Origin: a virus
Taxonomy: Duplodnaviria; Caudoviricetes
Direction: 5' to 3' (one strand)
Length of the DNA: 34,168 bases
IMG/VR virus record: IMGVR_UViG_3300036779_000090
Coordinates: 1 to 34,168 of that record
Position numbers and translations under genes: made by a program
Part shown: positions 1,008 to 30,120 of the stretch, one piece after another
Layout of the letters: every line of letters begins with the position of its first letter
Numbering within the stretch: the first letter of the stretch is position 1
The notes under the pieces: generated by a model
What the model was told of the DNA's origin: nothing
Databases searched by the model: none
Seen by the model: the letters and a program-made list of their open reading frames with translations, nothing else

Positions 1008-1107
1008 GTGTCTCTAATCGGATTGAGTGGTTCACTCATTGAGTCTGTGTCTATTCAAGGTAGAGGGTTCACTTCCGTTTGCGGCATCTATCTGGCTAAG
1101 TGGCTTA
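1008..1107 (-). repeat. TIGR-like dual-repeat array, about 2.5 units
   Basis: Minus strand reads TAAGCC acttagcca GATAGATGCC gcaaacgga AGTGAACC ctctacctt GAATAGACAC agactcaat GAGTGAACC actcaatcc GATTAGAGACAC. Edge repeats at 1029, 1066, 1102. Confidence 0.8.
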
Positions 1108-2094
1108 CGGTGTCAGCAAATCGTGACCGATCGTAGATTGCGGTACCCGCTGGAACACGCGGATATAGTCGACATCGAGTGACTGCGGCAGTGCCTCGTT
1201 ATCGACACCGTACCGACCGGCCCAGCTACCGCCAACCGCGAGATTGGCAAACAAGTAACATCCCGGCATCGGCTGGTGATCGTCACTCACCCAACTGTAA
1301 TTGAACGCCAGGATCGGCTCGCGGTCGAGGTACACGATCGCTTCGGGTTCCTTGTAATATAGCCCGTAGGTGTGGAACCCGGCGGCGAGATCGTCGTCAC
1401 TCCAATAATACATCCACTGCCAATTGTAGTTATCGACCGCCCAGGTACCTTCGTAACCCTGCGGGTTGGTGTCCCAATTCAGCACCTGGGCACCGCAATG
1501 CAGCATGTGCGTAGTGTCATCCTGGCCGTTGTTGACAATCTCACACTGATCGATTTCCGGTGGCCACGGGACACTCTGATCGTCACCGGGGTTGCGCTCG
1601 GAACCGGCGATCCAGAACGCGGGCCAGCATCCAAGGAACTTTGGTGCGCGCAGACGCGCCTCGAAGTACCACTCGTTACCGTCACCAATCGGGTAACAAT
1701 CCTTGCTGCGCAGCATACCGCTTGGCCAAAAGTCACCATTGTGCGGCAGCGCGGTCAGCTTTAACGCGTTGTCGGTGACAACGTGGTTCCCGGTTTCGCG
1801 GTACCGCTCCCACTCATCGTTGAGGTAATCGAGCATCCCGTCGTCGTAGACATACCGGGTCCAATAGTGCTGCATCAGCTTGTCGTTTGACCAGCCGCCC
1901 ATGCTGGCATTGAGGATGGTACGCCAGTCGGGTGTCAAGTCCATGATCGGCGGTGGTGCTGCGCGCGGTGACTTGGTATGCGGCGGTGACTGATAACCCT
2001 TGTCACCGGGAAACACCCGCATTCGTCGCGGCGGTTGCCTCGACGGTACCGGCTTTTTCAGGCGATCGCTCGGGTAATGATGTGACTGTGCCAT
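1105..2094 (-). CDS. Glycoside hydrolase family 16 (beta-glucanase/laminarinase-like)
   Basis: Motifs SGMLRSK, YFEAR, GCWPAFW, catalytic EIDQCE, FHTYG, NLAVGGSW, VDYIRVFQ. AGGAG RBS precedes 2094, but the true start may be further downstream. Confidence 0.88.
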   Translation of the reverse strand: MAQSHHYPSDRLKKPVPSRQPPRRMRVFPGDKGYQSPPHTKSPRAAPPPIMDLTPDWRTILNASMGGWSNDKLMQHYWTRYVYDDGMLDYLNDEWERYRETGNHVVTDNALKLTALPHNGDFWPSGMLRSKDCYPIGDGNEWYFEARLRAPKFLGCWPAFWIAGSERNPGDDQSVPWPPEIDQCEIVNNGQDDTTHMLHCGAQVLNWDTNPQGYEGTWAVDNYNWQWMYYWSDDDLAAGFHTYGLYYKEPEAIVYLDREPILAFNYSWVSDDHQPMPGCYLFANLAVGGSWAGRYGVDNEALPQSLDVDYIRVFQRVPQSTIGHDLLTP

Positions 2095-2193
2095 TTGTCA
2101 CTCCTATGTGGTACGGACACTGTGGTTCGTGGTAGTGCCCAAATCCGCTAAAGCACTGGGTACACGCGCCGCTGACATTATCAGGGTCTTGCA

Positions 2194-2400
2194 TCAGGTG
2201 GGCTTGATCATTGGTGCGACACGGCGCGCCTCGCTCACTTGTGTGTATTTCGGCGCTTCGGTCACTTTCTCGTTCTTTGGTTTGTCACCCTTGGCAAAGT
2301 TATAGTAACTCCGCGCGCGGGCCAGGACACCACGTTCCCTACCCTGACGTGCGAGTTCCAGGCATTTCAGCCGTAACTCTTCATCGGATGACATTGCCAT
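2194..2400 (-). CDS. Small hypothetical protein
   Basis: 68-aa ORF colinear with the operon. The ATG directly follows an edge repeat. Confidence 0.6.
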   Translation of the reverse strand: MAMSSDEELRLKCLELARQGRERGVLARARSYYNFAKGDKPKNEKVTEAPKYTQVSEARRVAPMIKPT

Positions 2401-2442
2401 GAGTCACTCATCGAGCCTGTTTCTGTTGGCGATCCAGGTTCA
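2401..2442 (-). repeat. Single TIGR-like unit filling a gene junction
   Basis: TGAACC tggatcgcc AACAGAAAC aggctcgat GAGTGACTC then ATG. Confidence 0.7.
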
Positions 2443-3300
2443 CATCGGCACGTAATACAGCCAGAGCCTGCCACCTATCCTCTTCGGTCGGTCGTTGTAT
2501 CCTTTTCGGTCGCGGAACCGGCGGTCTTCGGTCGCCGCACGCCGCCAACGATCCCTAAGATCGTCCCACTTGGAACTGAAATCACCTCGCAGTTTTCCGG
2601 CAGTGACAGCCCGGTCAATAATTCGCTGGTAAATGCGTCGCGCGTCTTCCCTTTGCTCCGCATCGGTACCGTCTTCCTTTTCTGTGCCAATGAACTTTCC
2701 TTTCCCCGGTAACACTTCGATCTTGGTATCAAACTGTTTTGCGGCGTCTGCCACTGCTTGAAGTGTCTCTTGATCCGCGCCATAGACATACACCTTGGCA
2801 CCATCCTGTTTCAGTTGCAGCGTGTGAAACGCCACATTGTGACTCAAGAGGTGGTCGTGTATCTCTTCGGGTGTACCCTTGGCCTCAAAACTTGCAATAT
2901 ATTCGCCACCCTTTCCTGGTACAAATTGCAGAACCTGTAACTGATTCGTGAGGTACCCCTTTAGCGCGAGCGCGAGTTCCGCCCGATCGGGTGTGGTATG
3001 ACGCATATGAGTCACGGTGGAATGTTCCGCGCCGGTCTTCCACGCGCCGAGTACCGGTTCGGTTTCGCTCTCCTCGATCCCGGCCAAGCGATCGATCTCC
3101 GGTGACAGTTCGCGGAACTTGGTTTGCTGTTTTGATTTGAGTGCCTTTAGCGCGGTCGGAAAGTCCAGGTTACCCTCGTTTGGTGACACAAAGCCTTCGG
3201 CACTGCCTTTGGCAACAAACTGGCCACCGTGACTGCCGCCCTTGGCGCGCGGGTGATCGGCCTCAACAAATGCGTCATGGAAGTGGATATGAACCGTCAT
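2440..3300 (-). CDS. Hypothetical protein, possible virion-internal or head-associated protein
   Basis: N-terminus VHIHFHDAFVEADHPRAKGGSHGGQF carries the HPR..GxF peptide common in phage head-module proteins. Lies between TerL and portal. Confidence 0.6.
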   Translation of the reverse strand: MTVHIHFHDAFVEADHPRAKGGSHGGQFVAKGSAEGFVSPNEGNLDFPTALKALKSKQQTKFRELSPEIDRLAGIEESETEPVLGAWKTGAEHSTVTHMRHTTPDRAELALALKGYLTNQLQVLQFVPGKGGEYIASFEAKGTPEEIHDHLLSHNVAFHTLQLKQDGAKVYVYGADQETLQAVADAAKQFDTKIEVLPGKGKFIGTEKEDGTDAEQREDARRIYQRIIDRAVTAGKLRGDFSSKWDDLRDRWRRAATEDRRFRDRKGYNDRPKRIGGRLWLYYVPM

Positions 3301-3446
3301 CGGCTGTCTCACATCCGCCTAGTGCTGGCGATCACCATAATGACCGTGACGGCCACCTACTGGATCAGCACCGGATCGCGGTCACGCGAAGCCGTCGCCA
3401 CTATACAGGTGACGCTGCCAAAATCGCAACTTATCCACCACTCGCC

Positions 3447-3713
3447 CTATGAGTTTGTCGAGCCGCCCGCCCGCTGAGCCTCATACCGCTCGTAAAGCCG
3501 CCGCAGGCGGTCCCTGGCGCTTGCCAGATAGCCCGAATTGCACAGGCGGCACCACGCTGACCCATCCGCGTCTTCGTACCAGTCGCAGTCCTCTGGCGGC
3601 AGCGGGCAATCGAGGTTGTCGCGGAAGCGGGCGATCTCTGCCGGGTCGGGTCTTTTGCCCATCCTGGCCCTCTCCAGGCGCTCTAGCCTGCGTATGAGCG
3701 ACGCCTTGACCAT
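3447..3713 (-). CDS. Hypothetical protein with Cys motifs
   Basis: ATG overlaps the upstream stop (TAATG). Contains CxxC. Confidence 0.55.
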   Translation of the reverse strand: MVKASLIRRLERLERARMGKRPDPAEIARFRDNLDCPLPPEDCDWYEDADGSAWCRLCNSGYLASARDRLRRLYERYEAQRAGGSTNS

Positions 3714-4003
3714 TACGGCCACCACCCCTTGTCGGTGTGCAGCTTGGCGATGTTAGGCACCCAGGTTCCATCGGGCAGCACACCGGGCCGCTCATCGATC
3801 CACGGCGCGCCGCAGATACCACAGACACAGACATCGCTGCCGTCATGCGGCACCGGCACATAATGCTGCGGCTCAAAATCAACAAACCACTCCGAATTGA
3901 CCGCTGGTCGATCGGGTGCCGCGACCAGTTCATGATTAGTCACACAGATACGGTGACCGTTCTCACAAGTGATTATTGCCCCGGCGGGTAACACGGTTGG
4001 CAT
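3713..4003 (-). CDS. Hypothetical Zn-ribbon-like protein
   Basis: CENGH...CGICG motifs. GGAGGTGA RBS immediately after the TerL stop. Confidence 0.65.
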   Translation of the reverse strand: MPTVLPAGAIITCENGHRICVTNHELVAAPDRPAVNSEWFVDFEPQHYVPVPHDGSDVCVCGICGAPWIDERPGVLPDGTWVPNIAKLHTDKGWWP

Positions 4004-4006
4004 GAG

Positions 4007-5530
4007 TCACCTCCCTAGCAGGTAACGCCGCACCACGGCGGCGCGCTCGTCACCAATCACCTGTAACAACGCACCGCACGCGGCGTTGGCCAGATCGTCC
4101 ATACCGCCCTTGGGGTGATCGACACTGTCACGACCGCCGCGTATCGTGCGTAACTCCAACTGGCAAAACTGGTTGAAGAGTCTTTGGTGATCGATCAAGC
4201 GGGCGCGACGGGAATTGAGCAACGGCAGGAAGTTCACGTACATGTCGCTTTTAGTCACTTCGGTCGGCTCGTACATGATCCCGCGCTTGATGAATTGTTC
4301 CCGTGGCCATTCCCCCGCGTAACGGTCACCCATCACCTTGCCGATGCGGTACTTCTTTAGTGTCTCACACAAAGTCTCGGTAGCCTGTTCCGGCTGGAAC
4401 GGCGCGCGTATCTCCTGTACCAGATCGAGAACACCTAAGTCACCTTCGGCGTGGGCGATGGCGATGGTGAAAGAATCACGGCTGCCGCCAGACGGATCGG
4501 CGAACGCGTAGTAGATCGGTCGGTTGGCTTCATCCCACGGTCGCTCGTAAACACCCATATCAGTGCAGCCGCGCACAACGTCACGATCAACATAATCTGC
4601 CAGATCACTACGGAACTCGGCACCGTATTCCGCCGCCGCGAATTCGGGGTCTTCCTCGAATGCCTTCTGTATCTCACCAGGGTAGAGTTCCTCGATGACC
4701 GGATTAAGTTGCTCCGTGGTCGCTTTGATGACCAGGATGTCATTGTCACTTTGTCCAAAATGATCCTCGTATTTCTTGAACAGTAATCCAGACTTCTTGT
4801 GTGGGGAACTGATACCGACAATCATCGAGTTGGGAATGGTCAGCATACCGGGTCGCAACGCGCGATAGGTTTCCACATCCGGTGTCGCTGACTCTTCCGA
4901 CCGGTAGAAGGCGACCTCGTCTAGTATTGCGCAGGCGATCGGATACCCACGCGGCGCGCGGTAGTTATTGGTGGCGACAACGATATCGACACCATTGCGT
5001 AACTCTATCGTGTGACCGGTGATATTGTGATCCAGCCACGGTGACAGTGTGCGATTGGTGTCAAAGTAACCCTTGATGTAACGCCACGCGATCGTCGCTT
5101 GCTCGCGTGTGTTGGCGAGACATGCCACGATCGGGCGTTCACCGGGTCTGAGCTTGGAAGTGTCTACCAGCCGCGCGGCCTCAACCGCGATGACACTCGC
5201 TGTCGAATCCTTGCCGCCTCTTCGGCCCACGATGCACCACAGTTCCTTGACACGGTGTACCGGCGGTAACCGACCGCCAGACACCGTGCTAAAGAACGCG
5301 ACCTCATCGGGTTCCAGCGGCTGGGCAAACGCCGCTTTGAGGATGATACGCCAACCACGCCAAGTGTCACCGCGATGCTGTTTCAGCACATCGGTGATAA
5401 ACTTGACTGGCTGTGTAGGGTAACGTAACCACGCGGGACCGGCGCGCTTGTCACGGTATAATTGTGACGCGATGTTTACCGCGTTTTGGAACATTCTCCG
5501 ATCGTGCGGATCGTCGTAATTGAGGCGCAT
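4007..5530 (-). CDS. terL: Terminase large subunit
   Basis: Walker A GRRGGKD, Walker B AILDE, coupling motif ISSP, RNase H-like nuclease motifs ADPSGGSRDS, GDRYAG and DDLANA. Confidence 0.93.
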   Translation of the reverse strand: MRLNYDDPHDRRMFQNAVNIASQLYRDKRAGPAWLRYPTQPVKFITDVLKQHRGDTWRGWRIILKAAFAQPLEPDEVAFFSTVSGGRLPPVHRVKELWCIVGRRGGKDSTASVIAVEAARLVDTSKLRPGERPIVACLANTREQATIAWRYIKGYFDTNRTLSPWLDHNITGHTIELRNGVDIVVATNNYRAPRGYPIACAILDEVAFYRSEESATPDVETYRALRPGMLTIPNSMIVGISSPHKKSGLLFKKYEDHFGQSDNDILVIKATTEQLNPVIEELYPGEIQKAFEEDPEFAAAEYGAEFRSDLADYVDRDVVRGCTDMGVYERPWDEANRPIYYAFADPSGGSRDSFTIAIAHAEGDLGVLDLVQEIRAPFQPEQATETLCETLKKYRIGKVMGDRYAGEWPREQFIKRGIMYEPTEVTKSDMYVNFLPLLNSRRARLIDHQRLFNQFCQLELRTIRGGRDSVDHPKGGMDDLANAACGALLQVIGDERAAVVRRYLLGR

Positions 5531-5628
5531 CGGTCACTCCACACAAGCTTCGGGCGGCGGAACCGTTGCCTGGAACCGCCGCCCTTAGCCCACCACCACG
5601 TTAAGCGCGACCCAACGCGGCAATCACC

Positions 5629-5817
5629 TTACGCGGCGGGGGTACCCTCGTCTTCGTCTTCCTCACCGTCACCCTCGCCGTCTTCGACTTCACCGTTTTC
5701 CGGCTCGCCTTCGACTTCTGCCTGCGGCTCATCGATCGGGGTACCGGGATGTGTGCCGGGTTCATCAACGGGAACGGTACCGGGTTCGGATTCGGGCGTA
5801 TCGCTCGGACTGGCCAT
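5629..5817 (-). CDS. Small acidic Pro/Glu-rich protein
   Basis: AGGGAG RBS. 62 aa, low complexity. Confidence 0.55.
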   Translation of the reverse strand: MASPSDTPESEPGTVPVDEPGTHPGTPIDEPQAEVEGEPENGEVEDGEGDGEEDEDEGTPAA

Positions 5818-5855
5818 ATAGCTCTCCCTGGTTTGTGGGGGTTACCTAACACTTC

Positions 5856-6220
5856 GGTTTATACTCTTCATCGATGTTTCTGTCTATCAGGATGGCTCAC
5901 TCGTCTGGGATGTTTCCATCGTTGTGGTTGGCTCAGCCTCATTGTGTCTGTCACAGGCTATGGCTCACTTTCCGGATGTGCGTCTGATCACCTTATTTGG
6001 CTCGTTCTTGTATTATGTTTCACTCGATTGAGGTGACTCGCTTACGCTTATGTTTCCAGTCTCTCCCGCTGGCTCATTCTTGGACCCTGTTTCCTTCACC
6101 TAGGGTGACTCGCTCGACGTATTTGTGTCTTTCAGCGTTAATGGCTCGCTCGCTCCAACTGTGTCAATTGCCCTCCATGACTCGTTCGATCGTTGTGTGT
6201 CTGTCGCGTTCTTGGACTAA
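5856..6220 (-). repeat. TIGR-like array, about 10 units
   Basis: Edge repeat (plus strand g(g/a)ctc(a/g)(c/t)tc) at 5894, 5930, 5962, 5999, 6035, 6071, 6107, 6143, 6179, 6215, mostly exactly 36 nt apart. Loop repeat gt(t/g)tc.(a/g/t)tc lies between, with unique 9-nt spacers. Confidence 0.9.
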
Positions 6221-6414
6221 ACCGGAAAAATGATCACCGCGCCATCGATTTCCTCGAATGTTTTTAGTGCCAAGTCGAGTGTCTTATAACGGCGTGACAC
6301 GGTACGCGTCGCGGTCCAGTAACCGGTCTTCCAGTGCATCCACATTAAGTGGAGGTGGAAGTGACCGTCATAGTAACGCAAGCCCCAGGTCGGTCGCACA
6401 TCGGGATAGTTCAT
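6217..6414 (-). CDS. Small hypothetical protein embedded between two arrays
   Basis: MNYPDVRPTWGLRYYDGHF..., 65 aa. The ORF-track extension to 6450 is array sequence. Confidence 0.6.
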   Translation of the reverse strand: MNYPDVRPTWGLRYYDGHFHLHLMWMHWKTGYWTATRTVSRRYKTLDLALKTFEEIDGAVIIFPV

Positions 6415-6421
6415 CTGGTAC

Positions 6422-6672
6422 GTTTCTCTCGTATCAAGTGACTCACACACCAGTTATGATTCTCACCATTGCTGTCGGTTTGGTTCACTCCTGTCTTACG
6501 CCTCAAGTCGGAATCACGGGTTCACTCGCCTTGTCCTGTGTCTATCGCCTAGCTTGGTTCACTTCTGCCGCCTGCGTCTGTTGACTTGAATGGTTCACCC
6601 GGCTCCAATGTCTCCGTCGCTTCATTCGGTTCACTCTTTCTATCTGCTTCGGTCATTTCGCTTGGCTCACTC
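6422..6672 (-). repeat. TIGR-like array, about 6.5 units
   Basis: Edge repeat ggttcactc at 6440, 6482, 6519, 6556, 6592, 6628, 6664. Confidence 0.88.
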
Positions 6673-7359
6673 ACCCGCTACTGCTTCCGTCCTACTGCTG
6701 GGTTCGGGTAGTAACTCACCGGCCTTGGCCACCTGGACGGCGAGTGCTTTCAGCGCGGCGTCACCCTCCTTCTCGGCGATCAACGCGAGCGCGGGCAATC
6801 CCTCATCGATCGCCTCTTGTACCTCTTCGCGGGTCGCGAGGCGTCCCTCACGGTACCACACGGTTTCGACCGGGTCACCCAGGCTGAACAGAACACCCTT
6901 CTCGCCCGCAAACGTGCGGAACGGCTTGGGATACTCGCGGCTCACCCACAGGCACGACACGCCGGGGTTACGCGCCAGGGCAAAACCGGGACCGGGCTTG
7001 TAACCTTCCGGCATGTTTATCTCTCTGCGGTGTGCATGCGGTCGCGCGAGGAACGGGCAAGCCTTGACCGCGAACTCGGCACACTCACGATGCGAGGGCG
7101 GCTCGGAGATCACACGGTTCACCGCGCACATGCAACCGATGACACTGACAAAGTACCTGCCCAAAGGTTCGCCGCATATCCAGCACTGGTGTTTAGACAC
7201 TGCCGGTTGGAACCGGGCGGTATTCACCACGCGGTGATCCGCCTCACCATTAGGCCACGCGACAAACTTGGGTACCGGGAACCCGCGATGATCCACCGCC
7301 AGCCGCTTGATCCTCTCTGGCATCGCGATGCCGTTGAGGGACGCATGATACTCGGTCAT
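6667..7359 (-). CDS. Phage hypothetical protein with Cys/His metal-binding motifs
   Basis: Motifs CWICG, EPPSHRECA, CPFL. 230 aa, flanked by arrays. Confidence 0.75.
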   Translation of the reverse strand: MTEYHASLNGIAMPERIKRLAVDHRGFPVPKFVAWPNGEADHRVVNTARFQPAVSKHQCWICGEPLGRYFVSVIGCMCAVNRVISEPPSHRECAEFAVKACPFLARPHAHRREINMPEGYKPGPGFALARNPGVSCLWVSREYPKPFRTFAGEKGVLFSLGDPVETVWYREGRLATREEVQEAIDEGLPALALIAEKEGDAALKALAVQVAKAGELLPEPSSRTEAVAGE

Positions 7360-7360
7360 T

Positions 7361-7474
7361 GGTCACTTCCCTATTTTGTGTCTATCCAGTAAGCTGGTTC
7401 ACTCAATCCCGTTGCGTCCAGTCTCTTTTGTTGGTTCACTCATCACTTATGCTTCTGTCGCGCAGGCTGGTTCA
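7361..7474 (-). repeat. TIGR-like array, 3 units
   Basis: Edge repeats at 7361, 7396, 7433, 7469. Loop repeats gtgtctatc, gcgtccagtc, gcttctgtc. Confidence 0.85.
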
Positions 7475-7732
7475 GACATAGTAACCGACACTCGGATACG
7501 GGTTGTCACGCCAATCGTTACTGTGCTCCGCGTACATATCATCCCACGCTTGGCGTAACTGGTCAATCAGTGTCTCTTGTATCCGCTTTGCCACCATCAA
7601 GCTCGCATCGGTATACGGCGCGCGACCGATCGCCCTGGCTACCGCATCGAGTCTCTCCTGCGCCTCGATCAGTAACCGCGCCGCTTCCAGATGTTGCTCA
7701 CGGGTTAAGTGACTTAACTTCATCTGTTTCAT
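7472..7732 (-). CDS. Hypothetical protein
   Basis: 86-aa helical ORF with a GGAGAG RBS. Confidence 0.65.
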   Translation of the reverse strand: MKQMKLSHLTREQHLEAARLLIEAQERLDAVARAIGRAPYTDASLMVAKRIQETLIDQLRQAWDDMYAEHSNDWRDNPYPSVGYYV

Positions 7733-8842: not shown

Positions 8843-8961
8843 GGGTCACCGATCAGCTTTGTCAAGCACCAACCCGGCATTATCCACATTTAAAACCGGC
8901 AAACAATCGATTTGTCCTAGAGCCGGGATGAAACCTCATTTCCCAAGCTTACCTCATTGTC

Positions 8962-9225
8962 GGTCACGCATTGGTATGTTTCCATCTTACACTTGGTTCA
9001 CTCAAGGCGATTGTGTCTATCCTTGAACGAGGTTCACTCACAGGATATGTATCTTTCGGATAACGTGGTTCACACCATTCGATGTATTTCTGTCTAGGGG
9101 CATGGTTCACGCCGTAAAGGTGTTTCTGTCGCTGATGTGGTTCGTTCATCTAATGTGACTCTGTCATGTAATGTGACTCATTCTACTATTTTGCGTCGGT
9201 CACTTCATCTGACTGTGTGTCTCCC
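8962..9225 (-). repeat. TIGR-like array, about 6-7 units
   Basis: Edge repeats at 8962, 8995, 9031, 9067, 9104, 9139, 9175. Confidence 0.88.
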
Positions 9226-9415
9226 GCCTGCCCTTTCGAGACACCACGGCTGCACGCGTTGCGCCCGCAGACCTTTGAAGGGGAACCGTCACATCGGCAG
9301 CTTTGAACCGCGCGCCGGTTTCGCCCACGGACGCGGCAGGTACTAAACACCTGAGGGGTAGGGACAACCAGTCTCAGGTGTGTTGCCGCAACCAGGAACC
9401 TAGCACGCCCGGTGT
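9217..9415 (-). ncRNA. Candidate structured RNA inside the array cluster
   Basis: Stems acacctgag (9347-9355)/ctcaggtgt (9373-9381), extended by gcggca/tgccgc, and gtgtctc (9217-9223)/gagacac (9238-9244). GAAA/GCAA loop motifs on the minus strand. No convincing ORF. Confidence 0.35.
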
Positions 9416-9419
9416 GCTT

Positions 9420-9618
9420 GTGTCTATCCACTCGTATCGGCTCGCTCCATTTGCGTGTTTCGCTTTCGCTATCGTTGGCTCACTCCGCGTTTTTGTGTCT
9501 ATCGACGGCGCTGGTTCACATCCCACTTTTGTGTCTATCCTAGTTTTTGGTTCACTCCCTTGTGTCTAAATCAGATGCTATGGTTCACTCCTGTGGTCTG
9601 TGTCTATCACCATTGTCC
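9420..9618 (-). repeat. TIGR-like array, about 5.5 units, directly 3' of tRNA-His
   Basis: Edge repeats at 9439, 9477, 9513, 9549, 9582. Loop repeat gtgtctatc recurs. Confidence 0.88.
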
Positions 9619-9622
9619 TGGT

Positions 9623-9698
9623 TGGGGCGAGTGACGGGGTTCGAACCCGTGACCTTCGGAACCACAATCCACCGCTCTACCACTGAGCTACACCCGCC
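9623..9698 (-). tRNA. tRNA-His (GUG)
   Basis: GGCGGGTGTAGCTCAGTGGTAGAGCGGTGGATTGTGGTTCCGAAGGTCACGGGTTCGAACCCCGTCACTCGCCCCA. Cloverleaf, G-1:C73 His identity pair, encoded CCA. Top of the anticodon stem is weak. Confidence 0.93.
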
Positions 9699-9701
9699 GT
9701 A

Positions 9702-9886
9702 GTGTCACTTCTCCTGTGTGTCTCCGTCTGCGTCTAGGGTTCGATCGACTTGTGTGTGTCTATCGTTGTAACTGGCTCTCTTGACTTGTGTCTAATCCAG
9801 TTCGATGGCTCGCATCCTCCAAATGTTTCCGTCACAGAGCTTGGCTCGCTTCCCCGGCTTGTGTCAATCGGTAGGCTGGGCTGTTA
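9702..9886 (-). repeat. TIGR-like array, 5 units, directly 5' of tRNA-His
   Basis: Edge repeats at 9702, 9738, 9774, 9807, 9843, 9879. Confidence 0.85.
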
Positions 9887-10141: not shown

Positions 10142-10154
10142 GCTCTCCTCGTTT

Positions 10155-10416
10155 GCTTCTGTGTCTTTCTATTCGGCTCGCTCAGGCTTCTTGTGTCTGT
10201 TCCCGTTATCGGACTCATTCTACGGGTTTGCGTCTTTCGCGCGTAGTGACTCGTTTCCTCGTTGTGTCTCTATTCAACGGTGATGACTCGCACTGAGATT
10301 TTGTGTCTATTCCAATAGAGCGGCTCGTTTCCAACTCATGTTCGCTTACCTGTGACTCGTTCCTCCTGTTTGTGTCTATCCGGATAGGGGACTCGTTCAC
10401 ATTTAATGTGTCACTC
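10155..10416 (-). repeat. TIGR-like array, about 7 units
   Basis: Edge repeats at 10175, 10212, 10248, 10285, 10322, 10354, 10390. Confidence 0.87.
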
Positions 10417-10977: not shown

Positions 10978-10978
10978 C

Positions 10979-11110
10979 TCACCCCTCCCGTAAACTGCCC
11001 ATCGCTTCCTTTTGGCAGCGTGGACACGATCGCTTATACCTACCGTGTTTGCAAGTCAGATGGTCACCCTCTTTGAATGGCGGTACGCTCCTAAAACGTG
11101 ATTCACTCAC
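10979..11110 (-). CDS. Possible small Zn-finger peptide
   Basis: Hand translation MSESRFRSVPPFKEGDHLTCKHGRYKRSCPRCQKEAMGSLREG. Its stop abuts the resolvase start. Confidence 0.4.
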   Translation of the reverse strand: MSESRFRSVPPFKEGDHLTCKHGRYKRSCPRCQKEAMGSLREG

Positions 11111-11171
11111 CTTCTTCGGCTCGGTTCGCGGCTCGCTCAGCCTCTCTGTTTCCATCTAAACAAGTGACTCA
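11100..11171 (-). repeat. TIGR-like array, 1 full plus 1 degenerate unit
   Basis: TGAGTC acttgttta GATGGAAAC agagaggct GAGCGAGCC. Confidence 0.7.
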
Positions 11172-11753
11172 CAACGCCGCCAGCTTGGCTTCGAATTCGA
11201 GGATGCGCCGCTGTAACCCCGCCATCTCGGTCTTCAGCACCTCCAACTCGGTCTTTAGTTCCGCGATACGGGTATCCTCGCGGATCGGTCCATAGGCTGC
11301 CTCGCGGATATCGCGGACACACGCCCACGGCAAATCGAGTTCCTTGCCGATCCGTTCGTCACTGTAGCCATCAATGTACCGGCCAACCGCGTCATCAAAA
11401 TTAGTGTCTAACAAGGTGCGGATGCGGTGACGCTCATTGGCGGTCAAGGCGCGCGGTGTCGGCACCAAGGTCGGTTTTGCTGTCGCTGCCATTGTCTTCT
11501 CCCTGTTCAGACACTCCGGGCAGACGCAATCACGAATACGGTGTATGTCAAACCGCCAGCCTTCTTGCAGGAACTTCTTTTTGATCTTCTCCGGTACGTC
11601 ACCAAAGGCCCAACCGATTTCGGTTTCGTGGTGACACCGGTTACACGTCACACTCACTAAGTGGTGGTACCCACCGCCGCCCCCGCGCATCTCGCGGCGT
11701 ATCCGATAGGTCGTGGTGCGATACGAGCGTTGGGTATGACGGTGTACTGTCAT
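11169..11753 (-). CDS. Hypothetical protein with Zn finger, HTH-like region and coiled coil
   Basis: CNRC...CPEC, YSDERIGKELDLPWACVRDIRE, C-terminal heptad repeats. Confidence 0.7.
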   Translation of the reverse strand: MTVHRHTQRSYRTTTYRIRREMRGGGGGYHHLVSVTCNRCHHETEIGWAFGDVPEKIKKKFLQEGWRFDIHRIRDCVCPECLNREKTMAATAKPTLVPTPRALTANERHRIRTLLDTNFDDAVGRYIDGYSDERIGKELDLPWACVRDIREAAYGPIREDTRIAELKTELEVLKTEMAGLQRRILEFEAKLAAL

Positions 11754-11764
11754 GCTGCCTTTCT

Positions 11765-11935
11765 GCTTCAGTCACTTTTGTTGACTCGTTCCCTCAGCTT
11801 GCGTCTATCCGTGCTTAGTGACTCGTTCGCTCTGTGTTGTTTCTAGTCGTATTCGATGACTCGTTCACTTTCTTTGTTTCTGGTCTTCAACATGACTCGT
11901 TCTGTTGATGCGCTTCTATCTAATTAAGTGACTCA
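11765..11935 (-). repeat. TIGR-like array, about 4.5 units
   Basis: Identical edge repeat gactcgttc at 11783, 11820, 11858, 11894, and a half repeat at 11930. Confidence 0.9.
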
Positions 11936-13765
11936 CTCCAGCCGGACACCTTCCGCCGACCGGACCACAGTGATGTTACCATCGAACGAACCGAGTGGCA
12001 AGGCGTGATGGTCTATCAAAAATATCCGCCGGTTAAGCTCGCGGGCACGGGTCTTTAGACACTCGATCAGGTCTTCGATCCCTTCCTGCGAAAGGTGGGT
12101 CGTCGGCTCATCGAGTATCTCGAAATCGGTATCCATACCAGCGCGGGATAGCAGTATCTCGGATAGCGCACTGGTCACTGCCAACTGCCACCGCTGTGAC
12201 ACGCCACCGGCATAGTTCTCCCAATCCACCGGCTTATCCTGACCGGGCGGGAACAGGAACACGGTGAACTTGTGTGACAAAGTACCGGATTGTGTCTCAC
12301 GTTCGGTGGCGAACTGTATCTCCCAGTTATCCAAGCCGAGTGACTCACTGTGACGGTTTGCTGCCAGTTCCAGTTCCATCAAGGTAGTGTCAATCTGATC
12401 GAGCCTGATCTCACGGAACCCGTTCTGCCAGAACCCGTAGATTTCCACTTCTTGTCGCGCGCGGCGTAACTCGGTACGGTGCTGGTTACGGGCAGTCTTC
12501 AGTTCCTGCATACGGGCATCGAGCTTGTCACACTGTTCGGTAAACGGGTTCACCTGTTTCACGGCTTCGACCAGCAAGTTCTTTACCCGGTGCATCTCAC
12601 GGGTATCGTGGATTGACTGACCGGCGGCTTGTGACACTTCATTCTGCGCCTTTTGGTAACCGGCCATTCCCTCTTCCAACTGGATGACCATAAGCTGCAC
12701 CGCTCTGAGTTCCTCCGCAAACTCTTTAGCATCTTCCGTATCACCCGCTATTCCTGCTTTCGCGTCTTTAATCTTCTTTCGAACGGCGGCAGCTTTTTCG
12801 GCGATATGCTCATCGGTCACCTCCTGGCCACACTCCGGACAGACACCATTTGCCGTGGCATAGGTAGCCAGATCAGTTTGTAACTGTTCGATCACTATCG
12901 TATTGTGACCAATCCGCTGGTTGGCGCTGCCGATATCACGGATCAGGTTGCGCTCAGTGAGCCGGTAATCGTTGAGTTCGCGCAGATTGTCACCGCTGAA
13001 CTTGGCGAACGCGTCGCGTGCCTTGTTTAATATCACCTCCGTCTTGTCACGCCGCGTCGTAGCGTTACGGACATCACTCTTGAGTGTTGTCACCATAGCG
13101 ACACGATCCACCTCAAACCGCTCTTCACGCTTGATCGCAGCTTCGCGCTGATCGGTTACTTCCGCCAGGGTACCCTGAGTGACCGCCAGTTCCTGTTCCA
13201 GCCGCGTGATGGCGCGCTCGATATCAGTCACCTTGTGACTGGCGCGATCGGCTGCCTTGACCCACTTATCGAGATCAAGTGTCTCGGAAAATATCCGTGA
13301 CTTCTCTTCGGGCCGCAGCCCCATGAACATGGTACCAAACTGATCGATCAATATCGTGCGTCTTAACGCGGTGTCACTCAATGGCAATAACTGATCAATA
13401 TCCCGTTGCTCGACAGTCCGTCCATCGAGGGTGAGTCGGCTCGGATTACGATAACGCTCAAGCTGGTGGATGTTGCCATCGAGAATAAACCAACCGGTGA
13501 CACCAGCGGAACTACCGTCTGCGTACCAATTGACGATATCGGCACCGGGTCGGTTTGAGCGGCTTGTGCGCGCCTGTAATAACCAAGAAAGTGCCTCGCA
13601 GAATAGGGTAGATTTGGCGGCATCGTTGGCTCCCAGCCTGGGGTACAACTCGTTACGACCGGCGATGAAGTACAAACCGGGTGGCTGATCAAAGATCAGT
13701 TCCACCGTGCCCTTCACCGCACGGAAGTTGGTCACTGTGAGCTTCTTCAGGCTGAGTAACCCCAT
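11933..13765 (-). CDS. SbcC/Rad50/gp46-like SMC ATPase of a recombination nuclease
   Basis: NFRAV, Walker A-like GANDAAKST, coiled coil with CPECG zinc hook, signature YAGG, Walker B ILDEP, IDHH. Confidence 0.9.
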   Translation of the reverse strand: MGLLSLKKLTVTNFRAVKGTVELIFDQPPGLYFIAGRNELYPRLGANDAAKSTLFCEALSWLLQARTSRSNRPGADIVNWYADGSSAGVTGWFILDGNIHQLERYRNPSRLTLDGRTVEQRDIDQLLPLSDTALRRTILIDQFGTMFMGLRPEEKSRIFSETLDLDKWVKAADRASHKVTDIERAITRLEQELAVTQGTLAEVTDQREAAIKREERFEVDRVAMVTTLKSDVRNATTRRDKTEVILNKARDAFAKFSGDNLRELNDYRLTERNLIRDIGSANQRIGHNTIVIEQLQTDLATYATANGVCPECGQEVTDEHIAEKAAAVRKKIKDAKAGIAGDTEDAKEFAEELRAVQLMVIQLEEGMAGYQKAQNEVSQAAGQSIHDTREMHRVKNLLVEAVKQVNPFTEQCDKLDARMQELKTARNQHRTELRRARQEVEIYGFWQNGFREIRLDQIDTTLMELELAANRHSESLGLDNWEIQFATERETQSGTLSHKFTVFLFPPGQDKPVDWENYAGGVSQRWQLAVTSALSEILLSRAGMDTDFEILDEPTTHLSQEGIEDLIECLKTRARELNRRIFLIDHHALPLGSFDGNITVVRSAEGVRLE

Positions 13766-13832
13766 GTGTCACTCCTACCGGCTGTTTCTGTCGCTAATCG
13801 ACAGTGATTCACTCCATCTGCGTGGCTTTCAT
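13766..13832 (-). repeat. TIGR-like units (about 1.5) between the sbcD-like and sbcC-like genes
   Basis: GAGTGAATC ... GACAGAAAC agccggtag GAGTGACAC then ATG. Confidence 0.6.
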
Positions 13833-14989: not shown

Positions 14990-15100
14990 CGTTCCGCCCT
15001 TTGTGTTTCCGTCCTACAAGATGACTCGTTCATTTCATCTGCTTCATTCAGCAAGGGTGACTCGTTTCCGCTGCTTGCTTCTATCACACAAGATGACTTA
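14990..15100 (-). repeat. TIGR-like array, about 3 units
   Basis: Edge repeats at 15023, 15059, 15095 (36-nt period). Confidence 0.85.
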
Positions 15101-15292
15101 TCTCGCGTAGTAAACCAAGGCAACCGTGACAATCGCAATAAACGCGCTGACTGCTACAAACTTCAGTAGCCCATGCATGACATGCACACAACGCCGGTTA
15201 CGCAACGGCTCGCACTCGATTAGTGCCGGTCGCGGCGCGCGATTGAAAGCGTCCCGTGGTTCCCATACATCGTTGTCGGGCCAGTTTGGCAT
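15098..15292 (-). CDS. Small membrane protein
   Basis: GGAGGGG RBS. C-terminal hydrophobic helix FVAVSAFIAIVTVALVYY. Confidence 0.6.
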   Translation of the reverse strand: MPNWPDNDVWEPRDAFNRAPRPALIECEPLRNRRCVHVMHGLLKFVAVSAFIAIVTVALVYYAR

Positions 15293-15335
15293 CTACCCCT
15301 CCGTTTGGGGATCATGTTTCTGACCGATCGCGTGA

Positions 15336-15485
15336 CTAGTAGTCGAAACCTCTACCGTAACAAATCGGACACTCATACCCGCTAGGATCGTCACCGGAAC
15401 CGCCGCAAAAGAAACAGAACCAAATCCTGGTCCGACCCTTAAGCACAAAAGGGTACCGGGGGTGATAGTACCACCAGAACCGCAT
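15336..15485 (-). CDS. Small DnaJ-type Zn-finger peptide
   Basis: Hand translation MRFWWYYHPRYPF...CFFCGGSG...CPICYGRG. TGATG coupling to the upstream gene. Confidence 0.5.
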   Translation of the reverse strand: MRFWWYYHPRYPFVLKGRTRIWFCFFCGGSGDDPSGYECPICYGRGFDY

Positions 15486-17701: not shown

Positions 17702-17713
17702 TGTCTCCCTCCT

Positions 17714-18721: not shown

Positions 18722-18736
18722 GACACATCTCCCCCT

Positions 18737-19777: not shown

Positions 19778-19880
19778 TGTATCCTCCGTTTGAGTGACAG
19801 ACTATTCTCCCGGTCTGTCAGCGGTACGGTCACCTAACCGCTTTCTACAAGGTCGTCACCCACTAGTGCGGTTCAGTCAC

Positions 19881-23021: not shown

Positions 23022-25615
23022 ACAAACTCCCGTGCTCTTATCGGCCAGCCCAGCCGTTCGACACTGGAAAAGGTACCGGCTTTATTCATCTCGGCCCAAT
23101 TGGAACCGGTCTTCACTTCCGCGACCAAAGGTACTGCAAACCACGGGAACTCCCGGCCATCGAGCATCACATCGAGGATGAGTGGCGCGGAGTCCTCATA
23201 GTCACGCTGTGAATTGAAACAGAAGGTGAGGTCATCGTGTATCTGCATGTTGGCCTGGAGTAACGGGTTACCGGTTTCACTCAGCCGGTTCATCCCCAAC
23301 ATCACGATCCGGTTGGTGGCACCTTGCACCGGTGTATTAATCCGCTGACCATGACTCAACGGCGCGTGACGCCGTAACCCGTCAAACAACTGCACATAAC
23401 CTTTGTCACTGAATTGTTTCTCGATGACATCCTGCCACTTATGGACACCGGCAAATTGTGTCCAAAACGCATCATAGAGCTTATACAGTTCCCGATCTTC
23501 GCATTCGAGCCGCCTAGCGGTACTCGACAAACTGGCACCATAGAACAGCGCGAACACCCAGATAGACTTAATCTTACCGCCGCGAAAATCCTCCATCACC
23601 TTCTTGTCTTTGATCTTCTCCTTGCCACCGACCAGCCGGGGCACCGCGTGCGCGATCCGCTCTGCCCACTCCATGTGGATGTCATAATCTTCCCACAGTG
23701 CCTTACAGTAGTGACGGTCACGGGAACCGCAGGCAATGATCCTGGCGTCGATCTGACCGTAGTCAAACGCTGCCATTACCTTGGCGGCGATCTGAGCACG
23801 CGCCCTCTTGCCCTCCGGTGTCCGTATCGGCACGTTCTGAATATTGGGGTCTTCACTATTGAGCCGACCGGTTTCAGTGAAACAGGTACCCAGATTGGTG
23901 TGAATTATGTTACCGGGGTACACATTAGGACCGTCCGGTGAGTACGGGTCAACATAAGTACCTTTAATCTTTTGTACCTTACGGAAGGTCAGGATCGCAC
24001 CGGATATCGGGTGCTTCACCTCTTTGAGCACTGACTCCTTGGTTGACCATCCCGGCCCAGGTTGACCGGCGCGGGTCTTGAGTATGTCACGCAGCATAAT
24101 GATGACATGCGGCGGTGACCCTGGATTAAACTCGTCACGCGTGAGTCTCTTGAACTCCTCCGCTTCCGGGAACGCCAACACCGCTGCCTTGGCCTTGGCC
24201 AGCTTACGAGCGTACTCCCTGCGGAGTTCCTTGTTTATTGTGGCATCGAGCGGAACGCCCTTAAGCTGCGTGAGCACCACTGTCGGTACCTGTCGTACCT
24301 TTTCTTCATACACTGCCGCCAGCCCAGCTTCCGCGATGGCGGCTTCCTGTTCCAGGTACACAAACCGATGATACTTGGCATCGATACCATTGTACGGAAG
24401 GAGTGTCTCAAGCCCCTCATCACGCATCCTCGCCTTGTTCATCTTCGGTGACAGTTTCTTGATATTGATCCCGAAGTGTTGCAGGGTCAGCCATTCGAGT
24501 GACAGTGGACCGCCCTGGACATGGTCACCTGATCGCTCATCGATCACGTAAGCCTGGGTCAGGGTGTCTTCCCACGGTACCGACCGCGCGTATTCCTCGC
24601 CATAGAAGTAACACGTCCACTCCATTTCGAATGACAGTTGGTGGACCGCCTTCTTGGCGCGTGACTGGAGAAACCGCATCCAGGCGTCGTCAATGATCCG
24701 TAACTGTTTGTCACTCCATCCCGCCGCTGGGTGACGGTAGGCAAAAGATACCGTTTCGTCTTCGGTCGATACCGCAGCGGTCAGTATCTCGGAGTCTGTA
24801 TTGTACGGACGCAGGTTTTGTGTCTCGTAATCGACACCGGTAACTGGCTGCGCACCGGCGTATTTGAGGAACTGCAACAGGTAATCTAGATCGTCACTGC
24901 GGCTACCGGTCAGACAGGTAATGTCACTACGGGCAAATTCCGCTGTATGTACAACGGGTTCCGGCAATCCGGCCTCAACTTCGGCAAAGGCACGGCGCAA
25001 ATCGAGTTCCAGAGCGAACTCATCGTCAGCGCCACCCCAACCATTGTTCCGCCGTTGGTGAAGGATACCCGCTGGGTGGAACATCGGGTAGTACCAACAG
25101 ACGTAGTCACCGACCTTGATCGGGAACCGTCGACCACGCCACAGATAGATACCACCGGAACGCCCCGCCCAGGTCAGCGGCTGCGCACCCAGACCAAAGA
25201 TCGCCACCGGTTGTGACTGTGCAATGTCACGCTCGATGCGTGGACGGCAGCACTCGCGCTCAACCCGCTCCGGATCACGGTTGTCGGGCGGACGGCATTG
25301 TAGGATGTTGTTCCACCGGATATACTTCAGGAACTTCGCCGGGATGTACGGGCGCAACAAGTCACCGGACTCACCGACAAACTGCCGTCCCTCCTCATCC
25401 TCCACCCGACCGGGAGCTTCGCCGATGATATAGACTTCCGGCTCGCGCGCGCCGGTCGCGGGCATCTTTGGGTGCCGCAGCCCTGGTGCGTGGTTGAGCG
25501 GGCAGGCGCGGCACTCTAGCTGGTGCAGCAGGCGGTCACTGACCACGCTTTTATTGCTGGTATTGGTTGCCCCGGTCTCTGCCGGGACTAGGCCCAGAAT
25601 CCCCCCAAAACCCAT
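23018..25615 (-). CDS. Family A DNA polymerase with N-terminal family-4 uracil-DNA glycosylase and 3'-5' exonuclease domains
   Basis: UDG motifs C.ACPL, GEAPG, FVGESG, CRPP.NR.P, HPA. Exonuclease motifs DYET, YNGID. Polymerase motifs TETGRLNS..PNIQN, DYGQIDAR, K....FALFYG, INTPVQG, IHDD. Confidence 0.93.
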   Translation of the reverse strand: MGFGGILGLVPAETGATNTSNKSVVSDRLLHQLECRACPLNHAPGLRHPKMPATGAREPEVYIIGEAPGRVEDEEGRQFVGESGDLLRPYIPAKFLKYIRWNNILQCRPPDNRDPERVERECCRPRIERDIAQSQPVAIFGLGAQPLTWAGRSGGIYLWRGRRFPIKVGDYVCWYYPMFHPAGILHQRRNNGWGGADDEFALELDLRRAFAEVEAGLPEPVVHTAEFARSDITCLTGSRSDDLDYLLQFLKYAGAQPVTGVDYETQNLRPYNTDSEILTAAVSTEDETVSFAYRHPAAGWSDKQLRIIDDAWMRFLQSRAKKAVHQLSFEMEWTCYFYGEEYARSVPWEDTLTQAYVIDERSGDHVQGGPLSLEWLTLQHFGINIKKLSPKMNKARMRDEGLETLLPYNGIDAKYHRFVYLEQEAAIAEAGLAAVYEEKVRQVPTVVLTQLKGVPLDATINKELRREYARKLAKAKAAVLAFPEAEEFKRLTRDEFNPGSPPHVIIMLRDILKTRAGQPGPGWSTKESVLKEVKHPISGAILTFRKVQKIKGTYVDPYSPDGPNVYPGNIIHTNLGTCFTETGRLNSEDPNIQNVPIRTPEGKRARAQIAAKVMAAFDYGQIDARIIACGSRDRHYCKALWEDYDIHMEWAERIAHAVPRLVGGKEKIKDKKVMEDFRGGKIKSIWVFALFYGASLSSTARRLECEDRELYKLYDAFWTQFAGVHKWQDVIEKQFSDKGYVQLFDGLRRHAPLSHGQRINTPVQGATNRIVMLGMNRLSETGNPLLQANMQIHDDLTFCFNSQRDYEDSAPLILDVMLDGREFPWFAVPLVAEVKTGSNWAEMNKAGTFSSVERLGWPIRAREFV

Positions 25616-28380: not shown

Positions 28381-28408
28381 GTTATTTTTTGTGACCGAAT
28401 AAAGTCAC

Positions 28409-29431
28409 TCATTTGTCACCAACACCAAACATATGACCGAATAGTTCCCGTGTGAGGAGCGCCGGGTCTTTAATACCATTGGGCATACCGTATTGTTTTA
28501 TATTGAGTAACTCCGGGAGCGGACCAAACACGCTCGCGGCATCGGCATCAAGAAGAGTTACAACTTCCTTGTAACGCGGGATCAGGTCGGCCAGGAGATC
28601 GAGTTGCTCCGGGGTGGCCTGCTTGCCGTAGAGCGCGACGGCGTTGATGGCATACCGATGGCCAAAGAAGCTCACACGGATTGCGTCGAACGGTCCTTCG
28701 GTGATCACCAGGGTGCGCCCGCCGTAGCTCGCCGCGTCAAAATCCAGGAGGGTGTGTTTAATGTTCTCAACCGCCTGGGGCTGGCCCAACTGCAACGCTT
28801 TGTCGGGATCGGAACTCAGCGAGCGGTACCGTAACTCATCATTGCCGATATGACGCCCGGTCCAAGTGACTAATCTACCGTTATGGTACACCGGCACGAT
28901 CACTCGGTAACTAAACACACCGCGCACGGCGTAACGCAAGCCAAACCGCTTCACCAGCCAATCAACCTGCCGCTCGCTATAACCGCGCCCGATCAGGTAC
29001 GGATAGTAGAGCTTACGCGCACGCGGCGAGCTATCGAGCCGCTGGTACTCATCCGGGAACTCTAATGTAGTAACGGTATGAGTCACTGTAGACACGCCAA
29101 TCCCCAACCGTCGATTAATGTCACTATGATAGGTACGGTCATTGGCAACGATGGCGCTCTCGCCTGCCTGAACAATCAGACGGGCGGTATCACGCGCGCA
29201 ACCGAGTAACGCCTCGATCAGCCGGTACGGTGACCGTCCCGAATGCGATCCCGGTGACGGTTCCCGCCAACAGTGCCAAAACCCGTTACGGACATCGATA
29301 CCCATGTTGTAACCAGTGTCGTCACCGCAGAACGGGCAATTGATCCCGATATGGTGACGCGTAATATGGTAACGACTGCCGGTGGTCGTTTCGATACCGT
29401 GACTACCCAGGAACACTTCCCAGTCAAACAC
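28409..29431 (-). CDS. DNA primase (Zn finger plus Toprim)
   Basis: CPFCGD...WHCW, RVIVPV....LVTWTGR, ITEGPFDA, LLDAD, KDP. Confidence 0.88.
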   Translation of the reverse strand: MFDWEVFLGSHGIETTTGSRYHITRHHIGINCPFCGDDTGYNMGIDVRNGFWHCWREPSPGSHSGRSPYRLIEALLGCARDTARLIVQAGESAIVANDRTYHSDINRRLGIGVSTVTHTVTTLEFPDEYQRLDSSPRARKLYYPYLIGRGYSERQVDWLVKRFGLRYAVRGVFSYRVIVPVYHNGRLVTWTGRHIGNDELRYRSLSSDPDKALQLGQPQAVENIKHTLLDFDAASYGGRTLVITEGPFDAIRVSFFGHRYAINAVALYGKQATPEQLDLLADLIPRYKEVVTLLDADAASVFGPLPELLNIKQYGMPNGIKDPALLTRELFGHMFGVGDK

Positions 29432-29600
29432 CTTGGTTACCCTTCCATCGAGTCACCAATTCCACATAGCGATCCCACTTCCGCTGCGCCTCTGCTTCAT
29501 CACGGGTTCTGAGACTGAAATAGTACAATCTGCCGTCACGCTCGTACTCACCGCGCCAGATACCGTTGGTGTGACGGTACATGCGGATCGGTTTAATCAT
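29424..29600 (-). CDS. Small protein resembling an Arm-type DNA-binding domain
   Basis: Hand translation MIKPIRMYRHTNGIWRGEYERDGRLYYFSLRTRDEAEAQRKW. Overlaps both neighbours in a coupled way. Confidence 0.5.
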   Translation of the reverse strand: MIKPIRMYRHTNGIWRGEYERDGRLYYFSLRTRDEAEAQRKWDRYVELVTRWKGNQGV

Positions 29601-29781
29601 CACTTACGCGATAAGCACGGCGAGAGATTAACACGGTGTCAGTGCCCGACAGCTTACCGATGATCTGCAACAGTTCCCTATCCGGCGGCTCGCTGCGCGG
29701 TACCGCCTTGATCGCCATCATCAGTAACCGCCGACGCTCACTCTCAGTGAAGGGTTGGTCTATCATTCCACCTCTGTTCAA
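29593..29781 (-). CDS. Hypothetical protein
   Basis: Colinear small ORF. Probable start is MIDQ after GAGGTGG. Confidence 0.5.
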   Translation of the reverse strand: MNRGGMIDQPFTESERRRLLMMAIKAVPRSEPPDRELLQIIGKLSGTDTVLISRRAYRVSDD

Positions 29782-30085
29782 TCATGTCACCGGCGTCCTC
29801 GATTATACGGACGCGGTGGTGGAAGTGACGCAAGATCGCGCCGAGTATCTCGGCGCGACATTCAATCTCGTTCGGTGTCAGTGACACCAGCTTCTGGTCA
29901 CGGTCATTAAACGGATCGAGGCCGCGACACAGTTCCGGGTCATAGACCCAGCCGGGAAAGGAGAGACACGCGCCGCAGATATAGGGCTGCATCTTGTACA
30001 TAGCGATACCAGTGACCGCTCGACCGCAGCCTGGGCAGTCGAACTCCACCGGTTCCGGTTCGATCCAATCGTCAATGGTTTGCAT
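29744..30085 (-). CDS. Hypothetical Zn-finger protein
   Basis: CPGC...CGAC motifs. Confidence 0.6.
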   Translation of the reverse strand: MQTIDDWIEPEPVEFDCPGCGRAVTGIAMYKMQPYICGACLSFPGWVYDPELCRGLDPFNDRDQKLVSLTPNEIECRAEILGAILRHFHHRVRIIEDAGDMIEQRWNDRPTLH

Positions 30086-30120
30086 TCACCCACCTTGATT
30101 CTGTCGTTCAATGTGACTCA
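30083..30120 (-). repeat. Isolated single TIGR-like unit at a gene junction
   Basis: TGAGTC acattgaac GACAGAATC aaggtgggt GA then ATG. Confidence 0.6.

Follow-up and report, generated by a model that had tools for sequence, protein, structure and literature searches.

Stop codons placed inside the repeats of dispersed TIGR guide arrays in a tailed-phage genome fragment

Why should so many genes of one phage end within the first repeat of an adjacent guide RNA array, as if they had been slotted into it? The question is raised by the IMG/VR virus record IMGVR_UViG_3300036779_000090, which was analysed over its whole length of 34,168 bases (36% complete; called the window or the fragment here). 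It carries a tailed-phage gene set with portal, terminase, SbcCD, a RecA-like protein, DNA polymerase and primase (Pfam, PHROG), nearly all genes being encoded on the minus strand. Its short repeats are guide arrays of the dual-repeat tandem interspaced guide RNA (TIGR) type, dispersed across 16 places in phage core operons. The overlap between stop codons and these arrays is real and non-random, and constitutes a variant architecture of the known TIGR-Tas system, not an integron. We argue that tight packing together with repeat-driven shuffling, and not integron-style capture, probably put the stops into the first edge repeat.

Arrays and stop codons

Each 36-nucleotide (nt) unit consists of an edge repeat, (G)AGTGARYCA or (G)AACGAGTCA, a spacer, a loop repeat, (G)AYAGAMACA, and a second spacer. 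The repeats are strand-specific, with 40 edge-spacer-loop matches on the minus strand vs one on the plus strand (score 13), and form 15 clusters which, together with one weak unit at 15341, make 16 arrays in 34 kb. Repeat columns are conserved and spacer columns are near random save for a final G. The hallmark of dual-repeat TIGR-Tas is present, i.e., alternating edge and loop repeats, spacers of 8–9 nt and a period of 36 nt.

Published dual-repeat TIGR-TasA systems (PMC12045711; bioRxiv 2026.09.09.750476; PMC13421893; statements on published work refer here and below to the sections cited) share the 36-nt units and the truncated first and last edges. Furthermore, edge 9-mers of the window are identical to SpTIGR variants, a complete relative encodes a TasA above the family cut-off, and in the printed Fp and Ta loci the tas stop lies inside a repeat. 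The same papers place tigRNAs within the coding ends of tas genes, possibly linking maturation and translation. In contrast, published arrays adjoin tas, whereas the 16 arrays found here lie between unrelated core genes and a tRNA. The main text of PMC12045711 makes no mention of “stop codon”; its supplements or figure legends may show the overlap. Our literature search returned no paper on genome-wide dispersed arrays fused to gene ends, and supplements outside this search may show more. The dispersal of 16 arrays through core operons is new on this basis.

An initial annotation of the sequence had claimed that eight genes end with their stop codon at the TGA position of the first edge. This was confirmed with all coordinates correct, 9 nt and then a loop following each stop in the 36-nt register. 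On the minus strand these stops are 1105 (TAA GCCA), 2440 (TGA ACCT), 6667 (TGA GCCA), 7472 (TGA ACCA), 15098 (TAA GTCA), and 11169, 11933 and 30118 (TGA GTCA each). Five more junctions, absent from that annotation, were found: at 6217 and 15336 a TAG overlaps the edge by two bases, at 9884 and 13829 the stop lies one base ahead of the edge core, and at 10411 a TGA sits within an edge/loop hybrid. Altogether, 13 arrays directly follow a protein gene; overlap or contact between the stop and the first repeat was seen in 13 of 13, with the exact slot used in eight. The reality of the genes is supported by Pfam or PHROG families for 1105, 11169 and 11933 and by orthologs in relatives for 2440, 6667, 15098 and 30118; gene 7472 has neither.

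Chance, with TGA-rich edges and dense genes producing the overlap, is hardly credible as an explanation. T occupies the third position in 61% of edges, but the stop context T[GA]A-R-Y-C was found in 8 of the 13 genes preceding an array vs 1 of 29 other genes (Fisher p = 8.5e-5; gene list and the 13 junctions were chosen by hand, and the test is partly circular, since an array must follow somewhere). Moreover, of the 1009 TGA/TAA triplets on the minus strand, just 35 serve as the stop of a called gene (a base rate of 3.5%), and the overlap recurs in orthologs and in unrelated tas loci. Chance TGA content, an objection raised by the initial annotation itself, does not explain the feature.

Sliding registers and the source of the Tas protein

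In orthologs the stop was seen to overlap the repeat by one or two bases, to abut it, to leave a gap or to be read through, with ARYCA kept. The 65-aa gene ends in TAA-G-AGTCA in G001 (a complete relative of 112,650 bases with 18 clusters of the same repeats), in TAA GTCA in L069 and in TAG TCCA in the window. The GH16 gene ends in TAA GCCA (window and G001), TAA-G-AACCA (G004) or TAG plus a full edge (G005), and the 15098 ortholog in L069 leaves a gap that is followed by a full edge. tasA itself ends in TAA-G-AGCCA, TAG AGCCA or TAG CCA, the first and last of these coming from strains with identical TasA protein. Read-through into the array occurs in a helix-turn-helix (HTH) gene of L069, which stops at a loop TAG, and in one G001 gene, which stops at the second edge. 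Among 30 tas rows, many of them redundant and several read by eye, 13 stops overlap the first repeat, 3 abut it or leave 1 nt, 10 leave 6–11 nt and 4 lie further in. In the printed reference loci, also read by eye, FpTasA has a stop that overlaps with the first truncated edge, and the TaTasR frame continues across spacer A as far as the TGA of the loop. Automatic register calling misplaced or missed first units with weak loops (e.g., 1105 and 15336 in the window), and these were read by eye.

On the start side, the link to arrays is weaker than on the stop side. Four start codons had been annotated as directly following an edge repeat. Those at 2400, 7359 and 13765 do follow a GAGTGAC-type half edge, whereas 30085 follows a degenerate one. 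The likeness of GAGTGA to a Shine-Dalgarno site is real as well, but the same leader occurs at starts without arrays: GTGAC lies within 14 nt of 9 of the 42 starts, an array being absent at six of those nine, and it precedes the tRNA-His of G001 outside any array. The 5′ half of the last edge doubles as the phage's usual GGAG/GTGAC leader. Additionally, a Shine-Dalgarno-like spacer B is common to three genomes in different arrays (window 10397 unit, G001 18637, G002 8015) and also appears in a half unit after a stop in G005.

Relatives provide the Tas protein. G001 encodes one Nop-domain protein above the NCBIfam TIGR-Tas cut-off, which matches TasR and TasH structures, and a Tas protein above the NF052498 cut-off was found in one copy each in G001, G006, G007 and G008. 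The G001 tasA lies 37–53 kb from the arrays orthologous to those of the window, and three other clusters adjoin it; judged in this genome, window-type arrays fall outside the array-adjacent-to-tas definition. A repeat-pattern search retrieved 28 unrelated viral loci, 23 of them with a TasA match, and a stricter pattern retrieved one viral stretch. We infer that the window arrays are served in trans by a TasA encoded outside the fragment, whose putative membership of the dual-repeat TIGR-TasA class is drawn from the tas gene of its relative.

SpTasH cuts the edge itself via Y289/H296 (PMC13421893). The TasA of G001 has Y352/H359 at the same spacing, as compared by eye; a direct alignment of TasA with SpTasH stopped short of the tail, and the match rests on spacing. 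Among five TasA proteins the H is invariant (5/5) and the Y is replaced by F in two; the TasA of G006 has F in place of Y. The TasA proteins of G001 (18781-19899, minus strand, P0001) and L016 have a Nop domain enlarged by some 80 inserted residues compared with other TasA.

Turnover of units and origin of the flush junctions

Array junctions are inherited while their spacers are replaced wholesale. The spacers of six orthologous first units agree at 27 of 96 positions, vs 52–75% at fourfold sites of the flanking genes; the 990..1109 junction is inherited in G001 with other spacers, and its last unit alone is kept in G005. Units are gained and lost at both edge and loop repeats, and they recur in different arrays. 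Between G001 and G003, which are 97% identical, there is an indel of exactly 36 nt with breakpoints in the loop, together with spacer changes in place. Relative to L069, the window lacks half a unit at the rusA junction, and the sbcD-sbcC junction of L069 holds 4 units with the stop at the slot. The last 12 codons of gene 6667..7359 resemble a decayed unit. Contigs of four DNA runs covering 900-16000 contained no joints except in run X2, where one contig (depth 4.6) has an extra unit at 6592-6598 and, with it, a duplication of 7 nt of the edge. The additional T at 10410 in an X2 contig of depth 2.5 may be an error.

Two smaller observations belong here. Between G001 and both G003 and G004, the first two or three bases of a spacer are often retained when the rest is replaced, which may hint at the route of rewriting. 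The 2196 junction has no unit in the window, half a unit in G005 and about 1.5 units with a TAG overlap in L070, and the window sequence at this site may be an eroded array.

How could such junctions arise from packing and shuffling? The mature TaTasR guide begins with AGCCA and ends with UGCG, i.e., it runs from base 5 of one edge to base 4 of the next (PMC12045711), and published arrays are described as opening with a 5′-truncated edge and closing with a 3′-truncated edge. A guide would accordingly be complete with the last five bases of the first edge (ARYCA) and the first four of the last edge, and because it would need only half edges, arrays could be trimmed flush to neighbouring genes. 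Deletions and short-repeat recombination would perform this trimming on each array, which would stop where TGA or TAA gives the first A of ARYCA or where TAG gives its AG. No larger overlap is possible, and of the three stops only TGA agrees with the consensus as well. Since both ends of a guide fall mid-edge, any gene flanked by two arrays necessarily looks slotted into one edge; the slotted look therefore arises without a cassette recombinase. Recombination between short repeats is the simplest agent, and we infer both this agent and the direction of the junction changes. A comparable arrangement exists in the PeSL cassettes of T4-type phages (PMC2839356), where recombination at dispersed intergenic repeats shuffles non-essential genes. 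PeSLs are promoter-terminator elements, whereas the elements of the window are guide repeats of 9–10 nt with no excess of promoters or terminators over shuffled sequences (9 vs 8.2 and 18 vs 14.2 in our scan). Archaeal C/D box sRNA genes (PMC7994747) resemble the arrays in being Nop-domain guides whose conserved boxes carry an upstream stop; 25% overlap the 3′ end of an open reading frame (ORF), and they are co-transcribed with mRNA, as the arrays presumably are with their flanking genes. However, C/D box sRNAs are single cellular methylation guides, whereas TIGRs are DNA-targeting phage arrays that in the window lie flush at both ends and whose protein is itself reported to cut the repeat.

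Several observations count against packing and shuffling as the whole explanation. If five tight registers are open, 8 of 13 junctions in one register gives p = 0.0012, which favours the exact slot as such. Full-edge endings (GAG-TGA) occur at 2 of 8 slot junctions in the window vs 4 of 29 array-free genes ending in GAG, and such junctions fit targeted insertion or selection for a cuttable edge equally well. Passive deletion gives no account of the in-place replacement of both spacers between fixed flanks. In addition, gene 15336 appears to have had its end replaced by a complete unit that also exists at a distant locus of G006: both spacers of the unit at 15338 are common to a G006 unit that follows a hairpin, in an array near tasA, and the unit's TAG supplies the stop of a gene that has another ending in its L069 ortholog. 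In published work, minimal arrays required full edges for processing, and the 5′ half of the first edge may be indispensable. No tas gene was found in the window by Pfam, PHROG, tblastn or NF052498, and the comparison set consists of about six independent relatives, which are mostly partial.

Dedicated acquisition, inserting units at GAGTGA-like sites with duplication of half an edge and with intragenic insertions purged, is quite unlikely; on this account GAGTGA-like sequences in this genome would mostly be stop/leader junctions. It draws on array-free junctions such as terL TGA-CTC-ATG that resemble an edge, on the 7-nt duplication around the single extra X2 unit, on stop-proximal units that differ between G000/G005 and G001/G004, and on the single units at 2440, 15336 and 30118. 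The initial annotation had likewise considered insertion specifically at stop/start junctions. This is supported in part, as units move and one supplies the stop of gene 15336, but several observations speak against such specificity: stops slide in orthologs, loop repeats contain breakpoints too, indels may run from loop to loop or span half a unit, and clean empty sites, sought in relatives at the eight junctions, were found at none of them. The 2440 junction is filled, with other spacers, in G002/L069 and G005, and the unit is absent in G001/G003 and in G004, where the junction is 18 nt shorter and of unrelated sequence. The 30118 junction is unfilled in G001 and G006, yet the downstream genes differ there; at 11933, 6667 and 1105 the nearest relatives carry units and other relatives have an altered junction, and 7472 and 11169 have no ortholog in the relatives compared. 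All 6 records lack a unit at the edge-like terL junction (TGA-CTN), which argues against efficient targeting of such sites. Furthermore, reverse transcriptase and resolvase families were not found in G000, G006 or the complete G001.

Packing would have a side effect, in that TasA processing would cut mRNA between the TG and the A of a stop and between leader and start. The published cut position lies inside these stop codons, so that the mRNA cut already suggested by the initial annotation is sharpened and plausible. If first and last edges are cut as published, the message upstream would be left stopless, ending in UG or UA, and the ribosome-binding site would be severed from the gene downstream. 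Selection for regulation could then keep the overlap flush, TasA, a processing ribonuclease, cutting the phage's own polycistronic mRNAs as a timer in the manner of T4 RegB and feeding back on tasA. This is compatible with packing and shuffling, and we consider it unlikely as the cause. The cut would by analogy fall inside the stop at 8 of 8 junctions, the Y/H pair of G001 TasA has the spacing of the edge-cutting pair of SpTasH, and the sbcD, sbcC, rusA and 2440 junctions are conserved while spacers change. Orthologs, however, tolerate registers that spare the stop (TAA-G-AGCCA, gaps of 6–11 nt) or lose the array, the Y is F in G006, and the affected genes span replication, packaging and unassigned genes with no common timing. 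The need of minimal arrays for full edges also speaks against it. RegB (PMC1702504) is the same in predicted effect only, being a phage nuclease that cuts its own mRNAs in ribosome-binding regions; it is a stand-alone GGAG cutter, whereas TIGR cutting would be a by-product of guide maturation.

A bolder proposal, which we regard as rather doubtful, would make TasA a genome-wide mRNA processor that, in maturing guides from arrays at a dozen or more gene junctions, cuts stops and the gaps between ribosome-binding site and start, coupling guide supply to the shutdown of sbcCD, rusA, portal-region genes and tasA, with new units written into GAGTGA-like junctions and spacers rewritten in place. If true, it would expose the route of TIGR acquisition, and the origin of TIGR arrays and the role of TasA in phages are stated open questions (PMC12045711). 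If mRNA cutting fails, what is left is a known system with its genes packed economically.

Integron-like cassettes, moved by a site-specific recombinase acting on the edge repeat, are very improbable. Both they and the phage genes are promoter-less and bounded by a repeated site beside the stop codon (PMC12901181), and genes within arrays do come and go, as the initial annotation had supposed when it likened them to captured cassettes. Gene 11169 is missing in L069 and G001, where the arrays are continuous, the 65-aa gene and tRNA-His lie at other places in relatives (the tRNA outside arrays in G001 and L069), and G001 has in-array genes lacking in the window. The neighbouring spacers all differ too, so the breakpoints cannot be mapped. 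The likeness to integrons ends there: none of the eight junctions has the attC RYYYAAC/GTTRRRY pair or a hairpin (fold z-scores −1.5 to +1.9), and there is no IntI. G001 does encode a tyrosine recombinase, but this single PF00589 protein falls below all three NCBIfam cut-offs touched, is best matched by a prophage-type integrase model, and did not turn up in G000 or G006, both of them partial. Essential and core genes share the junctions, and sbcC, sbcD and rusA stay put. Moreover, gene turnover is equal at array-free sites (after terL, where gene content differs in every record; recA-17043; HNH 15891). The MT-A70 methyltransferase and 147-aa genes at 17258-18721 (minus strand) are absent from G001, and a weak joint in run X1 (17231-18737; depth 4.2, side 30) also skips them.

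Whichever agent is at work, the clade offers a series of orthologous junctions, in which flanks stay fixed and spacers change, together with near-identical strains that differ by single units, which makes array turnover traceable. In such phages, most guides would escape an array finder that looks only close to tas.

Features of the fragment and further observations

Table 1. Guide arrays of the window and the genes that adjoin them
Feature	Position	Strand	Remark
3-unit TIGR array	990..1109	-	between GH16-like gene (stop TAA 1107-1105 in first edge) and portal start 989
GH16-like gene, 329 aa	1105..2094	-	PF00722 above cut-off
Single TIGR unit	2401..2444	-	first edge holds TGA 2442-2440; last half edge is leader of ATG 2400
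Conserved gene of no assigned function, about 286 aa	2440..3300	-	orthologs 73-85% identical
Array, about 9 units	5860..6222	-	TAG 6219-6217 overlaps first edge by two bases
65-aa gene inside array	6217..6414	-	same place in L069; different array in G001
Array after gene 6667	6415..6671	-	TGA 6669-6667 in full-consensus edge
230-aa gene between two arrays, no assigned function	6667..7359	-	L069 ortholog also ends at slot
3-unit array	7360..7476	-	TGA 7474-7472 in first edge; leader of ATG 7359 in last half edge
86-aa ORF	7472..7732	-	neither family match nor ortholog
Array, about 7 units	8950..9218	-	behind conserved non-coding element; no gene abuts
Array starting on CCA end of tRNA-His	9400..9625	-	
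tRNA-His(GTG)	9623..9697	-	between two half edges; CCA end runs into edge core
Array after HTH-like gene 9884-10141	9698..9886	-	stop just ahead of degenerate edge
Array after RusA-like gene 10411-10911	10142..10415	-	TGA in edge/loop hybrid
Unit(s) after gene 11169	11060..11173	-	TGA 11171-11169 in first edge
194-aa gene inside post-sbcC array	11169..11753	-	phrog_21667; absent from L069 and G001
5-unit array	11754..11937	-	sbcC TGA 11935-11933 in full-consensus edge; same junction in L069
SbcC-like gene	11933..13765	-	phrog_77
1.5 units	13766..13831	-	between sbcD (stop 13831-13829) and sbcC start
3-unit array	14990..15102	-	TAA 15100-15098 of 64-aa gene in first edge
Single unit	15293..15341	-	overlapped by TAG 15338-15336; absent from initial annotation
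Single unit	30086..30122	-	TGA 30120-30118 in first edge; ATG 30085 at end

Searches for targets of the guides gave no signal above controls. For self-targeting, the spacers of 181 units had no matches at 0–1 mismatches and 9 at 2 mismatches, vs 4–11 in three controls, and a target search in 8+8 mode with 39 window units yielded one match vs 3 and 1 in controls. A relative of terL was not found among the prokaryote genomes searched, and therefore no host was assigned.

The non-coding stretch at 9138-9285 (minus strand), ahead of an array, is 74–83% conserved in G001 and L069 and is a candidate promoter or structured leader. At 33479-34088 (minus strand), dense 5-nt GGY-NN repeats with 17 triple runs match the published description of VIPR guide RNA. 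Such repeats were not found in G001, G006, G008 or L069; no search for a Vipr gene was made, and a short way upstream the contig ends. A phage combining the two guide systems, TIGR and VIPR-like, would merit a look. In G001, sbcD (L001 8150-9240), a 633-aa ORF, has an in-frame, intein-like interruption of about 900 nt. The window as a whole is strongly enriched in GTGAC/GTCAC and GTAAC/GTTAC and avoids GGCC and ACGT. Finally, the gene at 23018-25615 (minus strand) encodes a family A DNA polymerase that bears a fused uracil-DNA glycosylase-like domain at its N terminus.

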